A stretch of DNA of 8,279 nucleotides from a virus (Duplodnaviria; Heunggongvirae; Uroviricota; Caudoviricetes), in IMG/VR virus record IMGVR_UViG_2548876852_000004, positions 1 to 8,279 of that record; one strand, written 5' to 3'. A model generated the notes under the pieces. The model worked only from the letters and a program-made list of their open reading frames with translations, made no database searches and was not told the origin of the DNA. This document shows, piece by piece, positions 1 to 8,279 of this stretch. The position numbers were made by a program, and so were the translations under genes. How positions within the stretch are numbered: position 1 is the stretch's first letter; each line of letters opens with the position of its first letter.

Positions 1-8
1 CCCGCACG

Positions 9-287
9 TTACCTCCAGATGCGTTGCTGGAATGTGCGGGACGGACGCGGTGGGCGTTCGGAGTAAGGAAGCCTGACGGAGATTATCCAGTGACGATAAT
101 CGAGACTGAGGGCTTTCTTAACCTCGTATCCGCGCCTGCGGTAATACTGAATCAGCCATTCAGCCTGTTCTTCGGTGCAGGGGTCGTGCTGATACCAGTC
201 AGATTTGAATGCATGAGAACGCCGCCCGTGCCTGCTGGCAGGGGCGGCAGAGTTATCCGAATTGTAAAATTTGGTATCGTGCGCCAT
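9..287 (-). CDS. hypothetical protein (~92 aa), start and strand uncertain
   Basis: Minus-strand ORF with ATG at 285-287 and stop at 9-11; W/Y/R-rich composition and E. coli-like codon usage. The longer 9..416 version reads through an intrinsic terminator and is unlikely. SD is weak (AGAGAAAA) and no convincing promoter was found. An overlapping plus-strand ORF (24..413) cannot be fully excluded. Confidence 0.3.
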   Translation of the reverse strand: MAHDTKFYNSDNSAAPASRHGRRSHAFKSDWYQHDPCTEEQAEWLIQYYRRRGYEVKKALSLDYRHWIISVRLPYSERPPRPSRTFQQRIWR

Positions 288-357
288 CTGTTTTCTCTGC
301 TGGCGCAGCAGGTGCCAGTTGTTCAGGCTGACGGATGGATTGTAAACCAGAACGACC

Positions 358-386
358 AGAAAAAACAAAACCCGCCGAAGCGGGTT
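358..386 (-). terminator. rho-independent terminator downstream of hok
   Basis: On the minus strand: stem AACCCGC / GCGGGTT (7 bp, plus coords 369-375 and 380-386) with loop TTCG, followed directly by TTTTGTTTTTT (A-run 358-368 on plus). It lies about 70 nt past the hok stop codon. Confidence 0.7.
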
Positions 387-454
387 AAGTGCGGGTGCGT
401 TGAGGATGCCTGACACATCAGCGGTGGCGAGGGATTTCTCCCCCGCCTGGTCTC

Positions 455-610
455 TTACTCCTCAGGTTCGTAAGCTGTGAAGACAGCGACCTCCGTCTGG
501 CCGGTTCGGATTCGTACCTCGCAGAGGTCTTTCCTCGTTACCAGTGCCGTCACTATGACGGTTAAACAGATGACGATCAGGGCGATTAACATCGCCTTTT
601 GCTGCTTCAT
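455..610 (-). CDS. hokD: Hok/Gef-family type I toxin (51 aa, single transmembrane helix)
   Basis: Translation MKQQKAMLIALIVICLTVIVTALVTRKDLCEVRIRTGQTEVAVFTAYEPEE matches the Hok/Gef family and, as I recall it, HokD (RelF) in particular. ATG at 608-610 is preceded by AGGAG with 8-nt spacing; stop TAA at 455-457. The tracked ORF 455..649 begins at an upstream TTG with no SD. Family call is firm; the paralog name is from memory, and the K-12 relBE neighbours are absent here. Confidence 0.8.
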   Translation of the reverse strand: MKQQKAMLIALIVICLTVIVTALVTRKDLCEVRIRTGQTEVAVFTAYEPEE

Positions 611-624
611 AACCTGCTTCTCCT

Positions 625-1830
625 GTGTAAGTTCACAGAGATATTGCAATTGCCTCCGGATAAGTAAGGGGAGATTGCACTATGCAAATGCAGCATCTGA
701 TGGTTGGCTATCCTAAGTACTACCAAACGGCCGATTATGCGTTGAGGCTTTCAGTGATGGCTGATATAGCAACAATGAGAATGAAGGCTCTGCACTTCTG
801 GGATAAACACGGTATTTCTGCAGCTTCTGAAGCCTTTGGCGTGTCCTGCCGCACGCTTTACTGGTGGCGTCAGTTACTGAACAAGGAAGGACCTGAGGGG
901 CTAATCCCGCACAGTAAGGCACCTCTGGTGCGACGAAAAAAACACTGGCATCCCGATGTGCTGAAAGAGATTCGACGCCTCAGGACAGAGCTGCCGAACC
1001 TCGGTAAAGAGCAGATTTTTGTTCGCCTGAAGCCCTGGTGCGAACAGCGCTATCTGGCCTGTCCGAGTGTTTCCACCATCGGCAGAATGATCGCTGCCGC
1101 ACATGATAAAATGCGGATGATACCTGTGCGTCTGGGATCGCGGGGGAAGGCACTGCTTGTCAAAAAGCGGTCTGCCAAACCCCGCAGGCCAAAGCACTAC
1201 CGCCCGGTAAAGACAGGTGAGCTCATTGGGATGGACGCCATTGAGCTCAGAATGGGCGAACTGCGTCGCTATGTCATCACCATGATCGACGAATGCAGCA
1301 ATTACGCGCTGGCGCTGGCTGTGCCGTCACTCAACAGTGATATCGTCAATCACTTCTTCAGCCGCGCAGCCCGGTTGTTCCCGGTCGGTATCAGCCAGAT
1401 AATCACAGATAACGGAAAAGAGTTCCTGGGAAACTTCGACAAAACGCTGCAGGAAGCCGCTATCAAACACCTCTGGACCTATCCCTACACGCCAAAAATG
1501 AACGCTATCTGTGAACGTTTTAACCGGACGTTAAGAGAGCAGTTTATTGAATTTAATGAGATTTTACTCTTTGAAGATCTGGCGCTATTTAACCAGAAGC
1601 TGGCGGAATATCTGGTGCTGTATAACAGCAAAAGACCCCACAAGGCGCTCGCACTAATGACGCCCGTGGAATATATTTTAAAAGAGAATAAAAATTGCAA
1701 TATGTGGTGGACCCATACATCTCCTTGCCTTTCGGCGCGTAAGAGGCTAACCTACGTTTGTGAAGCATAGATTGGGCCTCAGATTAATGTTAAGCGTCTT
1801 GCAGGACGCGTAATGTTAACTGGGGCTTTT
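625..1830 (+). mobile_element. putative insertion sequence carrying the DDE transposase; boundaries not resolved
   Basis: Single transposase ORF wedged between hok and phage genes. Terminal inverted repeats could not be identified confidently by eye: only a shared TTCACA/TGTGAA motif near 633-638 and 1759-1764. The extent given is approximate. Confidence 0.3.
682..1770 (+). CDS. DDE transposase with N-terminal HTH and rve integrase core (IS481-family-like)
   Basis: 362-aa ORF. N-terminal HTH-like segment (ALHFWDKHGISAASEAFGVSCRTLYWWRQ). Catalytic triad candidates D (GMDAIE), D (ITDNGKEF) and E (NAICERFNRTLREQ), with about 35 residues between the second D and E, followed by KRPHKAL. SD AAGGGGAG sits 8 nt upstream of ATG 682. 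Confidence 0.8.
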   Translation: MQMQHLMVGYPKYYQTADYALRLSVMADIATMRMKALHFWDKHGISAASEAFGVSCRTLYWWRQLLNKEGPEGLIPHSKAPLVRRKKHWHPDVLKEIRRLRTELPNLGKEQIFVRLKPWCEQRYLACPSVSTIGRMIAAAHDKMRMIPVRLGSRGKALLVKKRSAKPRRPKHYRPVKTGELIGMDAIELRMGELRRYVITMIDECSNYALALAVPSLNSDIVNHFFSRAARLFPVGISQIITDNGKEFLGNFDKTLQEAAIKHLWTYPYTPKMNAICERFNRTLREQFIEFNEILLFEDLALFNQKLAEYLVLYNSKRPHKALALMTPVEYILKENKNCNMWWTHTSPCLSARKRLTYVCEA

Positions 1831-1954
1831 CTCTGTCTGCCTTACGGTGGCATGCCCGAGGCAGACAGCCTCAAGCACCCGCAGCAATTCTACTTAACTC
1901 TCGCTTTACAGCAAACCGTTTTGCCCGATATGGGAATTCCCATACGGAATGAAT

Positions 1955-2059
1955 TCAGTTCCCCAGGCGCTCCATCAAAAACACAACCAGGCAGTAAACA
2001 CCCACAACAGCAATAACAGCCAGAGCGCCTTCCATTACCAGTGAAATATCATCCGACAT
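1955..2059 (-). CDS. candidate small hydrophobic peptide (34 aa, one predicted TM helix)
   Basis: Not in the ORF track (below its length cutoff). ATG at 2057-2059 is preceded by a strong SD AAGGGAGGG (spacer about 3-4 nt). Translation MSDDISLVMEGALAVIAVVGVYCLVVFLMERLGN has acidic/charged ends and a hydrophobic core. Stop TGA at 1955-1957. An AT-rich possible promoter lies at 2060-2168. Confidence 0.3.
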   Translation of the reverse strand: MSDDISLVMEGALAVIAVVGVYCLVVFLMERLGN

Positions 2060-2168
2060 ATTCCCTCCCTTGGTGTGAATCCCGGCGAACGTTTTTACCC
2101 CCACCGACAAATAACATATACTAGAAAAGCAATAGCTATAGCAACGCCTGCAAATGCATCTGGCCGGC

Positions 2169-2732
2169 TCATTGGTTCTCCCCCTGTGTCGCTTCTACTG
2201 CGATCTGACTGGCGTATTCGTTAATGGTAACGATAAGTTCTTGCTCGGCCTCATCCAGACAACTACCGATACCTCGCCTGTCCACTTCAGAAGCATCGAA
2301 ATCTGCACGAAGCCTGGCGACCTTCAGGATTGCGGACAACACCTCATCAGGGATTGCCGGAGAGTTGGTTGACGTTTCCGAGATTATCCGAAAATTATTG
2401 GTTGACGAACCCTTATTTTCCCGAAAGTTTCCAGCCTGAAGCATGGCGGCGCGGTGACACCAGATAATCCAGCCAAGCGCCATATCCCATGCCATGTATT
2501 CTCTATCGCCATTTTTTGCTCTGCGGCGATCTACAGATTCCCCGAAACGCTTCTCCATAAATAATTCATAGGCTGCCCGTTCATCCGATACTGATGCCAG
2601 TGATGCCAGTGCAATTTTTAATGCGGTAAGCATGTTGTTTTGATCTTCATCGAGTCCGAACGGTATTTCATCCCGTGATGACTCAATTCCGGTAATCGTG
2701 TACTGTAGCCATTCTTTGGTTAATTCAGTCAT
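2169..2732 (-). CDS. hypothetical protein (187 aa), orphan gene with its own upstream region
   Basis: ATG at 2730-2732, stop at 2169-2171. A 126-bp AT-rich gap (2733-2858) separates it from the upstream gene. No recognisable domain motif by eye. Confidence 0.6.
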   Translation of the reverse strand: MTELTKEWLQYTITGIESSRDEIPFGLDEDQNNMLTALKIALASLASVSDERAAYELFMEKRFGESVDRRRAKNGDREYMAWDMALGWIIWCHRAAMLQAGNFRENKGSSTNNFRIISETSTNSPAIPDEVLSAILKVARLRADFDASEVDRRGIGSCLDEAEQELIVTINEYASQIAVEATQGENQ

Positions 2733-2766
2733 TTTTCACTACCGCCCTTTCGGGCGGTCTCCTGAT
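2733..2766 (-). promoter_or_regulatory. 5' UTR stem-loop placed between the SD and the start codon of the 187-aa gene
   Basis: Minus-strand RNA reads ...CAGGAG-ACCGCCC-GAAA-GGGCGGU-AGUGAAAA-AUG. The stem is a perfect 7 bp (plus coords 2741-2747 / 2752-2758) with a GAAA tetraloop. The SD AGGAG (2759-2763) is 26 nt from AUG in linear sequence but about 8 nt if the hairpin folds. No U-tract follows on either strand, so it is not a terminator. Confidence 0.45.
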
Positions 2767-2858
2767 GTTCTGAGGGTGCAGGAATCCCTCCGGTTAAGGA
2801 TTTAATAAAAATCATTTCTGATTTAAATTTTCAGTGTTTAGTTGTTGGTTTATAGCCT

Positions 2859-3170
2859 TTATGCTTCGGCCTTATTTCTCAGCCATACACAAACAGGACC
2901 ATCTTCGGTGTCATGTATCGAACCGATAAACCATCCCTCACCTTCTGGTCGCTCAGGTTCCCATGCTGAAATATCAGGGCCATCTGCGTCCAGATTAAAA
3001 TCATCTTCATCCATACTACGGATAGCCCACTGAAGATTATTTTTCTCCATCCAGGCGTTAAACTCTTCCGTTGAAATATATTCCCGACCATCACAGAATT
3101 TTTCATATTCAGGATGCGTCCAGCAGCCATATTCATTACGTTCCACTGGCATTTCTTTAATTGCGCTCAT
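2859..3170 (-). CDS. hypothetical phage protein (103 aa, acidic)
   Basis: ATG at 3168-3170 is preceded by a G-rich SD (GGGGGGG) and directly follows the upstream gene stop (TAAATG). Part of a run of tightly packed minus-strand genes. Confidence 0.6.
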   Translation of the reverse strand: MSAIKEMPVERNEYGCWTHPEYEKFCDGREYISTEEFNAWMEKNNLQWAIRSMDEDDFNLDADGPDISAWEPERPEGEGWFIGSIHDTEDGPVCVWLRNKAEA

Positions 3171-3356
3171 TTACCCCCCCTTATTTAATTTTCTACGACA
3201 CTTTTTACAATCATCTGGACTTTCGAATGTATCCGGCTCACGCTCATTGCCAAAATACATCCACCCACCGCAAGTACTTGTTATTTCACCTTCAGCAAAA
3301 TAATGATGCTTTTTCGCCATAAGTGGCCTTGCCCAGCCCGGATTCGTTTTACTCAC
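3171..3356 (-). CDS. small Cys-containing protein (61 aa), possible zinc-ribbon-like
   Basis: GTG start at 3354-3356 is preceded by a strong SD AAGGAGG (spacer 6). GTGA overlap with the upstream gene stop. Cys residues at TSTCGG and CKKC. Confidence 0.55.
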   Translation of the reverse strand: MSKTNPGWARPLMAKKHHYFAEGEITSTCGGWMYFGNEREPDTFESPDDCKKCRRKLNKGG

Positions 3357-3709
3357 TTGTTGCCTCCTTTGCGAAGCTCTGCGACTAACTCGTCACATAT
3401 GTGCGTCAAAGAGCAAAGTTTGATTGCTGGATGTTCGCGCACCATCTCCACACCCTGCGCCCGCAATTCTGCCAGAAAAGCGTAGGGGTCAGTTTTTTCA
3501 CTGTGGTACATGGCATCATAGATAATCATTGCAGCGACACCTGCCTGTCCTGCATCTGTGACGGATATATGCTCAAGGGCTACGGCCATTGCGTGTTTCA
3601 ACCTCTCATTTTCCACCTCAAGCACCACACGATTAGCCTCCAGCTCTTCTATGCGTTTTTTTGCTGCTCCCAGCTCAACACGCAGCTCCTGATAGTTAAT
3701 CTCGCTCAT
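3353..3709 (-). CDS. hypothetical phage protein (118 aa) with N-terminal coiled-coil-like segment
   Basis: ATG at 3707-3709 is preceded by GGGAGGAAGGAGA. ATGA overlap with the upstream 74-aa ORF stop. N-terminal heptad-like region ELRVELGAAKKRIEELEANRVVLEVENERLK. Confidence 0.6.
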   Translation of the reverse strand: MSEINYQELRVELGAAKKRIEELEANRVVLEVENERLKHAMAVALEHISVTDAGQAGVAAMIIYDAMYHSEKTDPYAFLAELRAQGVEMVREHPAIKLCSLTHICDELVAELRKGGNK

Positions 3710-3930
3710 TCTCCTTCCTCCCGCACTGCTGTTTTATATGCCCGAAGCACATGCGATGTTTTTCCTGACACAGTGCTTCTCAGAAAGAAAATTCCACTGG
3801 TGTTTATTACCAGATACGGGTCAGCAAGACGCAGCATATCCAGTATGTGATTATGTTTTCTTGTTTCCAGCACCGTACTGGAAATAAGCATATGTGACAC
3901 GGGGCCGAAATCATGATATCTGATTTTCAT
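3706..3930 (-). CDS. hypothetical protein (74 aa)
   Basis: ATG at 3928-3930 has a modest SD (AGGGTG). Its stop overlaps the next start (ATGA), indicating translational coupling within the operon. Confidence 0.5.
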   Translation of the reverse strand: MKIRYHDFGPVSHMLISSTVLETRKHNHILDMLRLADPYLVINTSGIFFLRSTVSGKTSHVLRAYKTAVREEGE

Positions 3931-3951
3931 ATCATCACCCTGCTGTAAAAA

Positions 3952-4707
3952 TTACCCGTTATCTCCTGTCGTTATTTTCTGTATGACATCACGATGCTTA
4001 TTAATTTCCCGCAGCGCGGCGCATAAGCGCTCCCACTTCTGAACCTGACCTTTTGCCCGGCGCAGCTCGCGGTTAGCCACATGCAGCGATGGTAAAATCA
4101 GACCATCCGGATGCTTTCTGATGAACGACGACTGTGACTGCACTGTGACCGCCACACTTTCAGTTTTAATTTCTTCCTGTGTTTCCGCTTCCCGGACTGG
4201 TAACGCAGCACCTGCTGGCTGAGGAAAGGCCTTACCATCATTTTTCGTTACCGGCGCGGCTTTCGGATCTGCTGGTAAATTCCCCCCCGACATGCAGTAA
4301 CGAAATTTACCGTTCTGATTAACGCGTGCCAGCCGCCCCGTTGCGGTTACCACCGCCAGCGTGGAAGCAACCTTGCGAGTACTGACGCCGAACTTACCCG
4401 CCAGTTCCTCACACGTTTTAGCACCATCCTGACCGATAAACTCAACCATCATGTCTGCGGTAACTTTTGGAGCGACCTCTTCGGTTACCACATCCGGCGC
4501 TTCAGGTTGTAGTGCCTGCCCTTCGGTTACCCCGGCTTCACCTTCGACAGCCAGAAACCAGGTGTGACCCGTTTTATCAACAACGCCATTTTTTTTGAGT
4601 TCCCACAGTTCGTTAAGAACTTCTTCACGGCTGATATCAAGCCGCGCCGCCAGTTCAACAGAATTGGCTTTTCCCATCGCTTTCAGTGCATGCAATACAG
4701 TTTCCAT
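3952..4707 (-). CDS. hypothetical phage protein (251 aa) with two winged-helix-like segments separated by Pro/Ala/Glu-rich linkers
   Basis: ATG at 4705-4707 is preceded by SD GAGGT (spacer about 9). Two HTH-like segments: N-terminal (SVELAARLDISREEVLNELWELKKNGVV) and central (KTCEELAGKFGVSTRKVASTLAVVTATGRL). Sits immediately downstream of the replication genes. Confidence 0.65.
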   Translation of the reverse strand: METVLHALKAMGKANSVELAARLDISREEVLNELWELKKNGVVDKTGHTWFLAVEGEAGVTEGQALQPEAPDVVTEEVAPKVTADMMVEFIGQDGAKTCEELAGKFGVSTRKVASTLAVVTATGRLARVNQNGKFRYCMSGGNLPADPKAAPVTKNDGKAFPQPAGAALPVREAETQEEIKTESVAVTVQSQSSFIRKHPDGLILPSLHVANRELRRAKGQVQKWERLCAALREINKHRDVIQKITTGDNG

Positions 4708-4732
4708 CGAAAATTTACCTCGTCAAAAATTC

Positions 4733-5464
4733 TCACATACCCTGACGTCCAACGTTTGACCGCCAGCTCTCCCAGTTAAAATTCACCCAACGACCACCAT
4801 TCATGGTCATACGGTCCATCACCCGATCTCCGAGGAGTGTGCTCATCGCTGCGTGATTCAGGTTCGTCAGCATTCCGACACTACGCATCGAAGCCGTTCT
4901 GCGGTCGACTATCTGGTTCAGCGTGACCTGCTCGTTGCGCGTATCCCGCTGCATGCCAATTTCATCAAGGACCAGAAGGTCAACTCCACAAAGCTCCTGT
5001 AAAAATTTTTCCCCGGACTGGCCGTTGTCGTAGCCGTCATGCAACACGCTCATGACATCGGACACGGTGACGATAATCACGCTTCTCCCCTTCGCCATCA
5101 GCCGATTGCCAATCGCTGCTGCCAGGTGATTTTTACCGGTACCAGGTTTACCGCTGAACACGAAGTTTGTACATCCGGTCATCAATTCATCGGCAATGGA
5201 TTTCGCCTGGCTCAGAGCATGGCGCTGACCGTCGTTCTGCACCCGGTAGTTCCCGAATGAGCACTTCCTGTGAAGCGGCTGGATGCCCGCACGGTTCAGG
5301 ATTTTTTCAACCCGCACCTGATGATTCAGGCGGTTAATCTCCTCGCTGCGTTTTCGTCCTTCAGCAAGTTGCCATTCCCGCCACTCCTCCACCGTCCGGT
5401 ACGGTGGAACCGCCCCCCTGTGGTGCAAGTCTGCGAATACGTTCAAGAACCCCAACTGCCGCAA
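4733..5464 (-). CDS. DnaC-like replicative helicase loader (AAA+ ATPase, IstB/DnaC family)
   Basis: Walker A GKPGTGKNHLAAAIG and Walker B LLVLDEIG. N-terminal region aligns with the DnaC N-terminus as I recall it (IQPLHRKCSFGNYRV...GQRHALSQAK). First in-frame start is TTG at 5462-5464 with no strong SD, so the exact start is uncertain. Confidence 0.85.
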   Translation of the reverse strand: MRQLGFLNVFADLHHRGAVPPYRTVEEWREWQLAEGRKRSEEINRLNHQVRVEKILNRAGIQPLHRKCSFGNYRVQNDGQRHALSQAKSIADELMTGCTNFVFSGKPGTGKNHLAAAIGNRLMAKGRSVIIVTVSDVMSVLHDGYDNGQSGEKFLQELCGVDLLVLDEIGMQRDTRNEQVTLNQIVDRRTASMRSVGMLTNLNHAAMSTLLGDRVMDRMTMNGGRWVNFNWESWRSNVGRQGM

Positions 5465-5480
5465 TGTTTTTCATGACACG

Positions 5481-6443
5481 TCACCCCCTGAATCCCGGCG
5501 GTATTTCAGTGTCCGGTTCAGAAATGTGATTCACGCAACGCTGCGCGGGCGAACGCCCCAGGCGGATAACCAGTTCATCCCATTTTTCCCGGAGTTTTGC
5601 CGGACTCATGATGTTTTTTACCCAGAACGAATCCCGCTGGAGACGCCCAAACATTTCACAAATTTGTCTGTGAGTTCTGCCATCCAGCATCCGCATTGTC
5701 CGCACGTCATTGGCCCATGCAGTCCAGTTGGGTTCTTTCGGTCTCGTGATCTCGCCATCATCGCTGGCCGCCTGCTCGTAAAGACTCACGATTCGTCCCC
5801 AGATCCACTGTGCGCACACCAAATCTTCCTGACTTCCCCACTGGCGTTTTTTCGCACTGAACACAACCGCGTCAGGGTGTCGGGTTAAAAAATCCTGTTC
5901 AGCCGTCTGCGGGTCCGGTTGCGAAGCGTCCGGACAAGAAGATCTTTTATCTGACGGATCAGGTTTTAATACTGACGGATCGGGGTCAATCATCGCCCCC
6001 CTAATCGGCAGTTTGTTATCAACAGTTGATCCATCAAAATTTGACGGGTCAACCGTTGAGGGGGCAATATTTGACGGGTCAACTGTTAACGGGTCATTTT
6101 TTGCCGGGCTAATTTTTCTTTTCGGTTTATATGACTCACGCGCCGCTGCCGCAGCTGCTTCGAGTTTTTCCACATTAAGCCGATAGATATTGCTTACATT
6201 ACGCCCACCGACCTTACGCTCTTCCTTCGTCAGCCAGCCCTCTTTCGCCAGTTCTGCAATAGCCGATTTCACTGTGGATTCACTTCTTGCACCGATCTGA
6301 CGCCGGATAGTTTCAATGGCAGGCCATGACACGCCCTCGTCATTGCTGTAGTCTGCAAGACGGGCCATAACCGCCACCCTGGATAAGATCATGCCGGTGA
6401 AGGCGCACCCTTCCCAGACAAGACCATGAAGCTTGCTGCTCAT
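5481..6443 (-). CDS. lambda O-like replication initiator
   Basis: C-terminal domain matches the lambda O C-terminus as I recall it (WANDVRTMRMLDGRTHRQICEMFGRLQRDSFWVKNIMSPAKLREKWDEL vs lambda WANDIRLMRERDGRNHRDMCVLFRWACQDNFWSGNVLSPAKLRDKWTQL). N-terminal HTH region and a repeat-containing linker. ATG at 6441-6443 is preceded by GGGGG; the tracked ORF starts at an upstream GTG (6458). Confidence 0.85.
   Translation of the reverse strand: MSSKLHGLVWEGCAFTGMILSRVAVMARLADYSNDEGVSWPAIETIRRQIGARSESTVKSAIAELAKEGWLTKEERKVGGRNVSNIYRLNVEKLEAAAAAARESYKPKRKISPAKNDPLTVDPSNIAPSTVDPSNFDGSTVDNKLPIRGAMIDPDPSVLKPDPSDKRSSCPDASQPDPQTAEQDFLTRHPDAVVFSAKKRQWGSQEDLVCAQWIWGRIVSLYEQAASDDGEITRPKEPNWTAWANDVRTMRMLDGRTHRQICEMFGRLQRDSFWVKNIMSPAKLREKWDELVIRLGRSPAQRCVNHISEPDTEIPPGFRG
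6017..6133. repeat. putative phage replication origin inside the O-like gene: three 11-bp palindromic iterons at 30-bp spacing plus an AT-rich tract
   Basis: TCAACAGTTGA (6019-6029), TCAACCGTTGA (6049-6059) and TCAACTGTTAA (6079-6089), the last two each preceded by TTGACGGG, followed by the AT-rich stretch 6094-6133. On the coding strand they encode repeated TVDPSN peptides, matching lambda's ori-within-O arrangement. Confidence 0.55.
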
Positions 6444-6465
6444 AAAACCCCCGAACACCGTGCTT

Positions 6466-6891
6466 TTAGTGCATCACCACAGCATTCCCTGCCGGGCCGC
6501 CGCGATTCATCTGGTCATACAAAACAACCGCTGACGCAACAAAATCATCGACATCCTTCACCAGCCGATCCCTCCGTTCGACGATCTCACGGTAATATTC
6601 AGAACTGTGGCTGCGCATACGGGCCACCAGCAAAGGCGGCATCGCCTTTTCGATCGCCGGTAACAGAGCCTGCATTTTTTCAACAGCATCAGGGGTGTCT
6701 TTATCCAGCCAACGGAAAATTTTCTGGGTATTACGGGCCAGGGCTTCCGGATGGCTGTCGTCATACAGTTCCGGGAACGTCATTCCCAGCTCGAAATACG
6801 CTTTGGTAATTTTCGCAGCCGGTACTTTTTCGCCGTCCGGATGCGCCCAGACATTCATCGCCATGCGGATGTGTTCATGCTTGATTTTCAT
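6466..6891 (-). CDS. YdaT-like (CII-position) early regulatory protein
   Basis: 140-aa ORF sitting between the Cro-like gene and the O-like gene, the position held by YdaT in Rac-type prophages. ATG at 6889-6891 is preceded by SD GGAG (spacer 8). It overlaps the Cro-like stop by 17 nt. Family assignment is from memory and position. Confidence 0.55.
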   Translation of the reverse strand: MKIKHEHIRMAMNVWAHPDGEKVPAAKITKAYFELGMTFPELYDDSHPEALARNTQKIFRWLDKDTPDAVEKMQALLPAIEKAMPPLLVARMRSHSSEYYREIVERRDRLVKDVDDFVASAVVLYDQMNRGGPAGNAVVMH

Positions 6892-7156
6892 GAATCAAGC
6901 TCCTAGAAAGTGGTTGTGTTAACGTTTTGGTATCTTCCAGCTCGGGCCAAATATTCATCCAATCAAAAGGCCTTAGTTGCTGACGTGTAACTTCACCATT
7001 ACTGGCTCGCTCAATAAGGACACATAACGATGCCCCTAACACTTGACCTTTACTCAATGCCTTTCTTAGATAACCGATGCTGGTACCACACTCGCATGCA
7101 AACATACGCTGTTCATCTGACGAAAGAGAATTGAGAAATATTCTTAATTCTTCCAT
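6875..7156 (-). CDS. Cro-like HTH regulator (YdaS-like)
   Basis: 93-aa ORF divergent from the repressor. HTH-like segment CGTSIGYLRKALSKGQVLGASLCVLIERASNGEV. Consensus SD AAGGAG sits 5 nt upstream of ATG 7154-7156. Confidence 0.7.
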   Translation of the reverse strand: MEELRIFLNSLSSDEQRMFACECGTSIGYLRKALSKGQVLGASLCVLIERASNGEVTRQQLRPFDWMNIWPELEDTKTLTQPLSRSLIHENQA

Positions 7157-7181
7157 AGCTACTCCTTAGTAAACACAGCAA

Positions 7182-7250
7182 AGAATACCCACAGGTAAAT
7201 AAAAGTCAATACCCACAGGTTGTTTACCTTGCGGTAATCGCATCTATTAT
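7182..7250. promoter_or_regulatory. OR-like divergent promoter/operator region
   Basis: Two copies of ATACCCACAGGT(A/T) at 7185-7198 and 7209-7222, 24 bp apart. Candidate rightward-early promoter on the minus strand: -35 TTGACT (7204-7209), 16-nt spacer, -10 TATTCT (7182-7187). Candidate repressor promoter on the plus strand: -35 TTTACC (7223-7228), -10 TATTAT (7245-7250). The repressor ATG at 7257 has no SD and lies about 7 nt past the -10, suggesting a leaderless mRNA. Confidence 0.55.
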
Positions 7251-7256
7251 TTACCT

Positions 7257-7676
7257 ATGGACAAATATGAATTTAGACGACAGCAACTCATCAAAATTCG
7301 TGATGAGAAATGCGATGGTAAAGCGGTTAACGTGGCCAGAAAGATCGGGCGCGAGCCTTCTTATGTATCAAGAATGTTGTACCCAGAGGGGAAAAAGGGA
7401 AAAAAACGGATCGCTGATGATATGGTGGAGATTATCGAAGAGTCCTTTGGGTTACCCCGGGGATGGATGGATGGTATCGTTTCATCATCAACGAACACAG
7501 CCTCCAGTTATGAAACAAGGGTTCTAACGCCACGACAACGTATTTTTTTAGATCTCTTAGACGAACTGCCAGAAAGTGAAGCGGATAAATTATTAAAAAC
7601 TCTTGAAGAGAAAAAACAGTATTACAATATGATCTACGAAGAAATCCGTAAAAAGAAAGCACAAAACGCATCATAG
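7257..7676 (+). CDS. CI-like prophage repressor, short form without a peptidase domain (RacR/DicA-type)
   Basis: 139-aa ORF with N-terminal HTH (AVNVARKIGREPSYVSRMLYPEGKK). C-terminal LDELPESEADKLL resembles the DicA C-terminus as I recall it. Divergent from the Cro-like gene and flanked on both sides by the same operator motif. Confidence 0.7.
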   Translation: MDKYEFRRQQLIKIRDEKCDGKAVNVARKIGREPSYVSRMLYPEGKKGKKRIADDMVEIIEESFGLPRGWMDGIVSSSTNTASSYETRVLTPRQRIFLDLLDELPESEADKLLKTLEEKKQYYNMIYEEIRKKKAQNAS

Positions 7677-7718
7677 CTCACCAAACAACTAGTCACCAGT
7701 TAAGACACTGCAAAAAAG

Positions 7719-7760
7719 TTACCCATGGGTATTTACTTTTTAAATACCTATGGGTATTCT
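7719..7760 (+). promoter_or_regulatory. OL-like operator pair overlapping a leftward-early-type promoter
   Basis: TTACCCATGGGTAT (7719-7732, core TACCCATGGGTA is a perfect palindrome) and ATACCTATGGGTAT (7744-7757). Overlapping promoter candidate: -35 TTTACT (7732-7737), 17-nt spacer, -10 TATTCT (7755-7760). Same motif as the OR-like sites. Confidence 0.55.
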
Positions 7761-7941
7761 TCTTTTCATACCAACCCACCCCGCCCCACAGAATGCAGGG
7801 CAATACTTTGAGTTACCAGGCAGTGGTCAGGGGTTAAGTAGCCAGCCCGAGGCGTATGAACATGACGGCGGGAACACTTTGTATAACAGCGCAGCAGGTT
7901 TTTAGTTCCGCGACCCGGCGTTAAGGGTAAATGAGGTCAAC

Positions 7942-8094
7942 ATGGATATGCTCAATCTTGGCAACAATGAATCTCTGGTGTGCGGAGTATTCCCCAACCA
8001 CGACGGCACGTTTACCGCGATGACGTATACCAGAAGTAAAACGTTTAAAACCGAAGCTGGCGCGCATCGCTGGTTAGCAAGAAACGCTAACTGA
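7942..8094 (+). CDS. small protein (50 aa), first gene downstream of the OL-like promoter; possibly YdfA/YdaF-like
   Basis: Not in the ORF track. ATG at 7942 is preceded by SD GAGG (spacer 5). Translation MDMLNLGNNESLVCGVFPNHDGTFTAMTYTRSKTFKTEAGAHRWLARNAN. Its size and position after the repressor match the small DUF1391-type genes of Qin/Rac prophages; the family assignment is from memory only. Confidence 0.45.
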   Translation: MDMLNLGNNESLVCGVFPNHDGTFTAMTYTRSKTFKTEAGAHRWLARNAN

Positions 8095-8279
8095 TTAGCG
8101 CCAGTAAAAACAGGTTTCCACAGGTTAATTTACCCTGAAAAGTCAGGGCATAACACGAAAGCGCACGGCGAGATCCCTTTGCATATAAGTCTTGTCGTTA
8201 AATTTCTTCGACCGTGCGCTTCTGGTTGTGGCAATCCGCGAAATGGCGCGGCGGTAAGTATGGCGGGGTTATTCCTTCC

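Follow-up and report, generated by a model that had tools for sequence, protein, structure and literature searches.

A hok/mok/sok locus split by an ISKpn28-like insertion sequence in a lambdoid prophage of Escherichia coli

The stretch of viral DNA analysed here (8,279 nucleotides, positions 1 to 8,279 of the IMG/VR record IMGVR_UViG_2548876852_000004; hereafter the window) represents the early/nin part of a lambdoid (Rac/Qin-like) Escherichia coli prophage, whose minus strand carries repressor/cro-like, O-/P-like and nin-type genes. Between the replication genes and Q it carries a hok/mok/sok locus, which is complete but split: the mok/sok partner of the hok toxin gene lies 1.1 kb away from it, apparently intact, on the far side of an insertion sequence (IS). 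Very probably, this is a complete type I toxin-antitoxin (TA) locus of the hokD/hokW type divided by an ISKpn28-like IS, with the toxin effectively disarmed and sok left as an orphan. An earlier note on this DNA had described a hok gene beside a divergent transposase, with no recognisable mok/sok partner and with a toxin that might have escaped antisense control. Its observation is partly confirmed and its interpretation partly supported.

The split locus and its insertion sequence

The partner that had seemed to be missing is found at 1720-1914, across the IS, where the whole leader is intact. The Rfam sok/hok leader family RF01794, which spans the leader of the hok mRNA, between +1 and the hok AUG, plus the antisense Sok region, matches at full length on the minus strand (1880-1714; 111.3 bits against a gathering threshold of 59, E = 2.4e-25), and the alignment decays only in its last positions, across the IS junction. 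The sokW gene of Stx phage 933W maps to approximately 1760-1830 of the window with 95.5% identity, and the predicted Sok fold has an energy of -33.2 kcal/mol (z = -5.3). The Sok promoter is intact and begins 5 bp past the IS end, in a position that fits the annotated start of 933W sokW. The window has, in other words, the conserved structured leader with a cis-encoded Sok region that marks a hok/mok/sok locus. Within 611-700, beside hok, there is indeed no mok frame and no Sok, as the earlier note implied; both are at the opposite side of the IS.

The displacement of the leader by an IS, proposed in the same note, could be mapped to the base. When positions 625-1725 are removed, the window becomes colinear with the uninterrupted hokD prophage of O157:H7 PA20 (L002) over 3170 bp, with 99.46% identity. 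Megablast of the transposase region shows that homology in other contexts ends at 1719, and the bases 1720-1770 are found in O157 genomes without the element. The breakpoint is at the hok Shine-Dalgarno (SD) sequence and is flanked by a 5-bp target duplication, TCTCC, which on the hok strand reads as the SD itself; because the insertion duplicated these bases, hok retains a copy of its SD. The simplest interpretation is a 1096-bp IS at 624-1719 with a 5-bp duplication; counting T624 as target gives a 1095-bp IS and a 6-bp duplication instead. The features of the locus are as follows, in order of position.

386-369, minus strand: intrinsic terminator of the hok mRNA, AACCCGCTTCGGCGGGTT followed by a T-run (terminator scan)
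392-448, minus strand: hok 3' untranslated region (3' UTR) with the fold-back inhibitory (fbi) element, core CCUCAACGCACCC at about 394-410 (duplex with the mRNA 5' end)
455-610, minus strand: hok coding sequence (CDS), intact, 51 amino acids (aa), HokD/HokW-type toxin (Pfam HOK_GEF)
619-623: left copy of the target duplication, TCTCC (empty site in L002 and right copy)
619-624, minus strand: hok SD, AGGAGA, formed by the left TCTCC copy and base 624
624-1719, plus strand: ISKpn28-like IS of the IS481 group, 1096 bp, TG...CA termini (ends shared with other copies)
624-651, plus strand: left inverted repeat, TGTGTAAGTTCACAGAGATATTGCAATT
682-1770, plus strand: transposase open reading frame (ORF), 362 aa, 346 codons within the IS and 16 from the flank (Pfam rve, rve_3, HTH_32)
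1589-1768, minus strand: truncated mok, ATG at 1768-1766, about 16 native codons, then IS sequence antisense to the transposase gene, stop at 1589 (ORF list)
1693-1719, plus strand: right inverted repeat, AATTGCAATATGTGGTGGACCCATACA
1720-1724: right copy of the target duplication, TCTCC (empty site and left copy)
1725-1753, plus strand: Sok promoter, -35 TTGCCT (1725-1730), 17-nt spacer, -10 TAACCT (1748-1753) (lenient scan, homology)
1725-1880, minus strand: 5' part of the hok mRNA, with tac at the 5' end, the mok SD and start, and the Sok target (RF01794)
about 1760-1830, plus strand: sok antisense RNA gene; the 5' tail of the RNA is complementary to the mok start and leads into a long hairpin and a U-run (933W sokW mapping)
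1887-1914, minus strand: putative hok promoter, TTGCTG (1914-1909), 16-nt spacer, TAGAAT (1892-1887), +1 probably near 1880 (lenient scan, start of the Rfam match)

The element is a mobile one, as the earlier note supposed for its transposase. The ends lie at the same nucleotides in three further copies, L003, L004 and L005, in unrelated contexts (a P2-like prophage, the galF-yegH interval and a ColV plasmid near iss) and are also fixed by the empty site. The inverted repeats are imperfect, with the common core ATATTGCAATT, and the terminal inverted repeats with TG..CA ends plus a short duplication are those of the IS481 family. The exact 30-nt left end was scanned in public viral, metagenome and genome collections and the hits were combined with loci already fetched, giving 108 loci that represent 28 distinct insertion sites. 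A T precedes GTGTAAG at 27 of these 28 sites, and copies 99.9-100% identical occupy at least seven sites other than that of the window. Duplications of 5 bp were recognised at eight sites, seven of them exact and one, at L004, with a mismatch (TTGCC/TTGCA); another copy has AACGC. One locus, L011 (3921-5016), has the exact 30-nt left end with only about 75% identity to the window IS, and may be a mosaic or a different relative. The hok::IS junction is present in 55 of 5426 complete E. coli genomes, including enteropathogenic E. coli (EPEC) E2348/69, where it lies at about 1,282,450-1,282,590 of NC_011601.1. The uninterrupted junction is present in 3845 genomes, and the IS itself, at 80% coverage or more, in 1073.

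The transposase itself matches Pfam rve (43.1 against a cutoff of 32.6) and scores 221.4 bits, just below the cutoff of 224, with the NCBIfam IS481 model NF033577; the next family, IS3, reaches only 98. In RefSeq, identical copies are named "IS481 family transposase" in some cases and "integrase core domain-containing protein" in others. The transposase start is exactly 71 nt (611-681) from the hok ATG on the opposite strand, the distance given in the earlier note. The ORF has no stop inside the IS and ends with a TAG at 1768-1770, which overlaps the mok ATG on the opposite strand; since the stop is supplied by the flank, the C-terminal tail of the transposase differs at every insertion site.

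On the other side of the element, the CDS, SD and intrinsic terminator of hok are intact, as had been noted. The hok ORF matches Pfam HOK_GEF (PF01848) with 82.9 bits against a cutoff of 22, which places it among the Hok/Gef type I toxins, membrane peptides of about 50 aa, and the encoded protein is identical to HokD of K-12 and to HokW in 46 of 51 residues. Its 3' UTR is predicted to pair with the mRNA 5' end (1880-1853) at -36.2 kcal/mol, a value matched by 8 of 500 shuffles. The long-range tac/fbi complementarity of a hok mRNA is retained, with the two partners now 1.1 kb further apart. In the predicted folds, the hok start region is buried in a hairpin that does not differ between the native and the IS-bearing contexts. 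A weak isrK-like Rfam match (365-446) overlaps the terminator hairpin. In uninterrupted loci (L002 2337-2549; L110 456-668; MokW of 933W), the mok frame is in frame with hok and encodes a 70-aa N-extended Hok; in the window the frame ends short of the hok SD, so that the translational coupling would be absent and the locus is a disrupted member of its class. An in-frame mok is seen in the hokC/hokD/hokW subgroup, and the mok of R1 overlaps hok out of frame.

Directly upstream of the hok promoter, short hydrophobic ORFs are present on the minus strand at 1955-2170 (for example one of 51 aa at 1955-2110). At this place the O157 prophage (L002 2736-2840) encodes a 34-aa hypothetical protein.

Expected state of toxin and antitoxin

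The IS entered at the hok SD, in the mok frame, at a point 5 bp upstream of the -35 of the Sok promoter. It separates the hok CDS, fbi and terminator, on one side, from the other group of elements, namely the hok promoter, tac, the mok start and the sok gene. The toxin gene would thereby have lost the use of its own promoter, with its start still buried in the native hairpin. The mok frame ends within the IS, some 965 nt short of the hok SD, and mok-coupled translation of hok is presumably lost. In the R1 system, Hok is made only if mok is translated as far as the hok SD (PMC9841398). Taken with the unchanged start hairpin, this makes a silenced toxin likelier than an uncontrolled one. On the sok side, transposase transcription and translation would leave the IS through the Sok promoter, translation stopping at the codon that overlaps the mok ATG, and sok would remain expressed as an orphan antitoxin, with the potential to act in trans on hok mRNAs of related loci. 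The most likely state, judged from the sequence, is that hok is silenced and sok probably still transcribed.

Three points weigh against this reading. The Sok and hok promoters match the sigma-70 consensus weakly (7-8 of 12 positions) and were assigned by homology. The terminator scan predicted no minus-strand terminator inside the IS, so transcripts from the hok promoter or from the prophage early-right operon, likewise on the minus strand, could reach hok, particularly on induction. The hok SD has also been kept, and low-level translation independent of mok may occur.

These points bear on the possibility that hok is still functional and under Sok control, by read-through from the hok promoter or the early-right operon across the IS into a long mRNA with the Sok target, tac, fbi and hok. 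Apart from the unterminated minus strand of the IS and the SD, it is favoured by the prophage genes adjoining the locus at 2169-7156, all on the same strand as hok, and by the presence of both tac and fbi. We nevertheless regard it as unlikely: mok stops at 1589, far upstream of the hok SD, where the coupling essential in R1 (PMC9841398) would be broken, the 1.1-kb untranslated antisense stretch would be a probable substrate for Rho-dependent termination, and the hok start remains in its hairpin. The reverse proposal, made in the earlier note, is an orphan hok without mok and sok, possibly driven by an outward IS promoter and escaping antisense control. The 71 bp between the hok and transposase starts do hold nothing resembling mok or sok, and outward promoters are carried by IS481-family elements, as known from Bordetella. 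This proposal is very improbable. Both mok and sok are present at 1720-1880, and strict and lenient scans of the IS left end gave no convincing promoter directed toward hok, the best candidate (763-734) matching the consensus at 8 of 12 positions. The stable carriage of the allele by 55 genomes argues against an unrestrained toxin, and the same geometry is seen at nine to ten other hok loci, which would be unlikely if a lethal toxin were released. The Rfam match and the empty-site reconstruction largely refute it.

One further alternative makes the supposed transposase a domesticated, fixed part of a hok-locus variant and not a mobile element. For it speaks the identical 71-bp spacing between hok and transposase found with ISKpn28, an element only 76% identical. 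It is refuted by the empty sites in 3845 genomes and by the copies at many sites, which have clean target duplications and are 99.9-100% identical at places without hok, such as the cvi/cvaC promoter; we give it next to no probability.

Recurrence of the insertion beside hok genes

What deserves further attention is the repeated presence of this IS lineage at hok loci. Ten of the 28 distinct sites have a Hok-family ORF, different in each case, whose start is 4-24 nt away from the left end of the IS and which diverges from the transposase without exception. These ORFs are HokD, two HokE-like, one HokA-like, two R1/Flm-like, one SrnB-like and three short divergent forms; nine of the ten pass the Pfam HOK_GEF cutoff (the HokD of the window and eight of the nine others), and the tenth scores 20.4 bits against 22. 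The left junctions concerned are listed here.

L001, L003, L007, L014, L052/L083/L113, L060, L073, L084, L102 and L104: left IS junctions adjacent to hok
611-624 of the window: the corresponding junction at hokD

As the IS copies at several hok sites are 99.9-100% identical and the hok loci belong to different subfamilies, the insertions are independent and recent. An eleventh site, on an E. albertii contig (L006, 1-271), was the only one revealed by blastn of the non-hok flanks against hok loci: here a hokD/hokW-type gene has the IS about 30 nt past its terminator, at the 3' end and not in the leader. The related ISKpn28 stands beside a plasmid hok gene in pAZ189_1 (L112 1172-2484), with 71 nt between the start codons and the duplication CCTCC followed by TTGCAA. 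For IncHI5 plasmids, too, ISKpn28 is reported "upstream of hokG", twice next to large deletions of 25-34 kb (PMC6339943). This descriptive report was the sole relevant one in the literature searched, where no general preference of IS481 elements or ISKpn28 for hok is described.

A tentative explanation, which we consider a real possibility, is that the ISKpn28-like lineage prefers the stretch between the Sok promoter and the hok start, and so recurrently disarms hok on prophages, plasmids and chromosomes while always leaving sok, with the transposase pointing away; the truncated hokD of K-12, a rearrangement known for long, would be a relic of such an event. In K-12 the homology of hokD to intact hokD/hokW loci ends exactly after ...CTTCTCCT, at the very nucleotide of the IS insertion in the window (comparison of L109 1562-1577 with window 611-626 and L002 2493-2508). 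The K-12-type relB-relE-hokD arrangement occurs in 1173 genomes and has no IS at the junction. The shared breakpoint suggests that the K-12 truncation arose at the same hotspot, perhaps by an IS-mediated event.

Selection could also generate the recurrence without any target preference, if the insertions that survive are those that inactivate the toxin in the orientation that keeps transposase read-through off hok. With the IS turned round, open-ended transcription of the transposase gene would run into hok, probably with lethal effect, so the uniform orientation could be selected, and the bias of ten out of ten can be explained in this way. In addition, the duplicated bases have no sequence consensus, reading YCTCC at four hok loci and unrelated sequences elsewhere, and ISKpn28 inserts into other targets, such as mgrB (PMC6101004), and occurs at 49 distinct sites in K. 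pneumoniae (PMC5343135). The points against selection are these. Among the 28 distinct sites none is inside a hok CDS or a hok promoter; since CDS insertions would inactivate the toxin equally, their absence argues for target choice over selection alone. All ten insertions fall within 4-24 nt upstream of the start codon, and the diverged relative ISKpn28 is found in the same position. Moreover, 10-11 of 28 sites are associated with hok, a target of approximately 250 nt in a 5-Mb genome, and the excess seems too large for selection among random insertions. We regard selection without target preference as rather unlikely.

Eight of 11 right flanks read as the duplication followed by TTG, and promoter-like hexamers lie at a fixed offset at four hok loci and at the Fur-regulated (Fur-box) promoter upstream of cvi/cvaC (colicin V). 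A rule that the IS always inserts 5 bp upstream of a -35 element was considered and kept only as a lead: the hokE insertion would be 2 nt downstream of the -35 according to the K-12 sokE annotation, and L004 and L106 lack the TTG. At the non-hok right junctions L067/L111 (2304-2370), L051, L011 and L047, 5 bp are followed by the promoter-like pattern TTGNNN-16/18-TANNNT. One non-hok right junction with promoter-like hexamers adjoins an STnc100 small RNA (sRNA) match, just upstream of it. No other small toxins were obvious beside the non-hok insertion sites, one of which is upstream of a HigA-like gene.

For annotation, the consequence is direct: a hok gene 71 bp from an "IS481 family transposase" is to be read as a split hok/sok locus and not as an orphan toxin, and this layout is present in dozens of E. 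coli genomes, including the reference strain EPEC E2348/69, and with ISKpn28 on pAZ189_1. If the placement reflects target choice, the element would be an IS that homes to type I TA loci, neutralising the toxin and keeping the antitoxin. This would bear on the decay of addiction modules, on cross-protection by orphan Sok RNAs and on target recognition by IS elements, and it would give the truncated hokD locus of K-12 a concrete and testable origin.

Relatives and comparable loci

The closest named relative of the window IS is ISKpn28, with about 76% nucleotide identity; both have a single DDE/rve transposase. ISKpn28 belongs to the IS481 family, is about 1100 bp long and has the inverted repeat ATATTGCAATT, as in the window IS (PMC6101004). 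More than 1500 Klebsiella plasmid records contain ISKpn28-like sequence, a count of presence whatever the layout. The window IS is an Escherichia element distinct from ISKpn28. Among species-representative genomes, its exact left end was found only in two E. albertii contigs, a result that says little on its spread beyond Escherichia.

Among intact loci, the closest counterpart is hokW/mokW/sokW of 933W and of the Sakai prophage Sp5, to which the IS-removed window aligns over 440 nt with 92% identity. In 933W this uninterrupted homologue is annotated as mokW, hokW and SokW antisense RNA. Experiments have established the hokW-sokW pair as a functional type I TA system (PMC8621323). Sok transcription and Hok repression are demonstrated for this 92%-identical pair (PMC8621323), whereas the window allele is known from its sequence. 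The two loci differ in that the window has the 1096-bp IS between the Sok promoter and the hok SD, and in the Hok C-terminus, which is the HokD variant TAYEPEE in the window and VDYESEK in HokW. Both are in lambdoid prophages; the 933W locus is near the end of a linear record (58.4-58.8 of 61.7 kb), and that of the window is between the replication genes and Q.

The hokD gene of K-12 (relF; relB-relE-hokD, Qin prophage) encodes the identical Hok protein and has a homologous CDS and 3' UTR. Neither hokD of K-12 nor hok of the window has its own leader immediately upstream. In K-12, however, the leader has been replaced by relBE without an IS, while in the window it persists beyond the IS.

An IS-inactivated hok locus is a known kind of object, and the feature in itself is ordinary. 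Pedersen and Gerdes, in 1999, reportedly described the IS-associated hok loci of K-12, namely hokA with IS150 and hokC and hokE with IS186. The analogy to these loci drawn in the earlier note is a fair one: in MG1655, IS186B is 19 nt downstream of hokE, and the K-12 loci, like that of the window, are inactivated by a nearby IS outside the hok reading frame. They differ in the family of the IS and in its position, which in the window is in the leader, between sok and hok, and not downstream of the gene. In contrast to the K-12 cases, the IS lineage of the window recurs at many hok loci.

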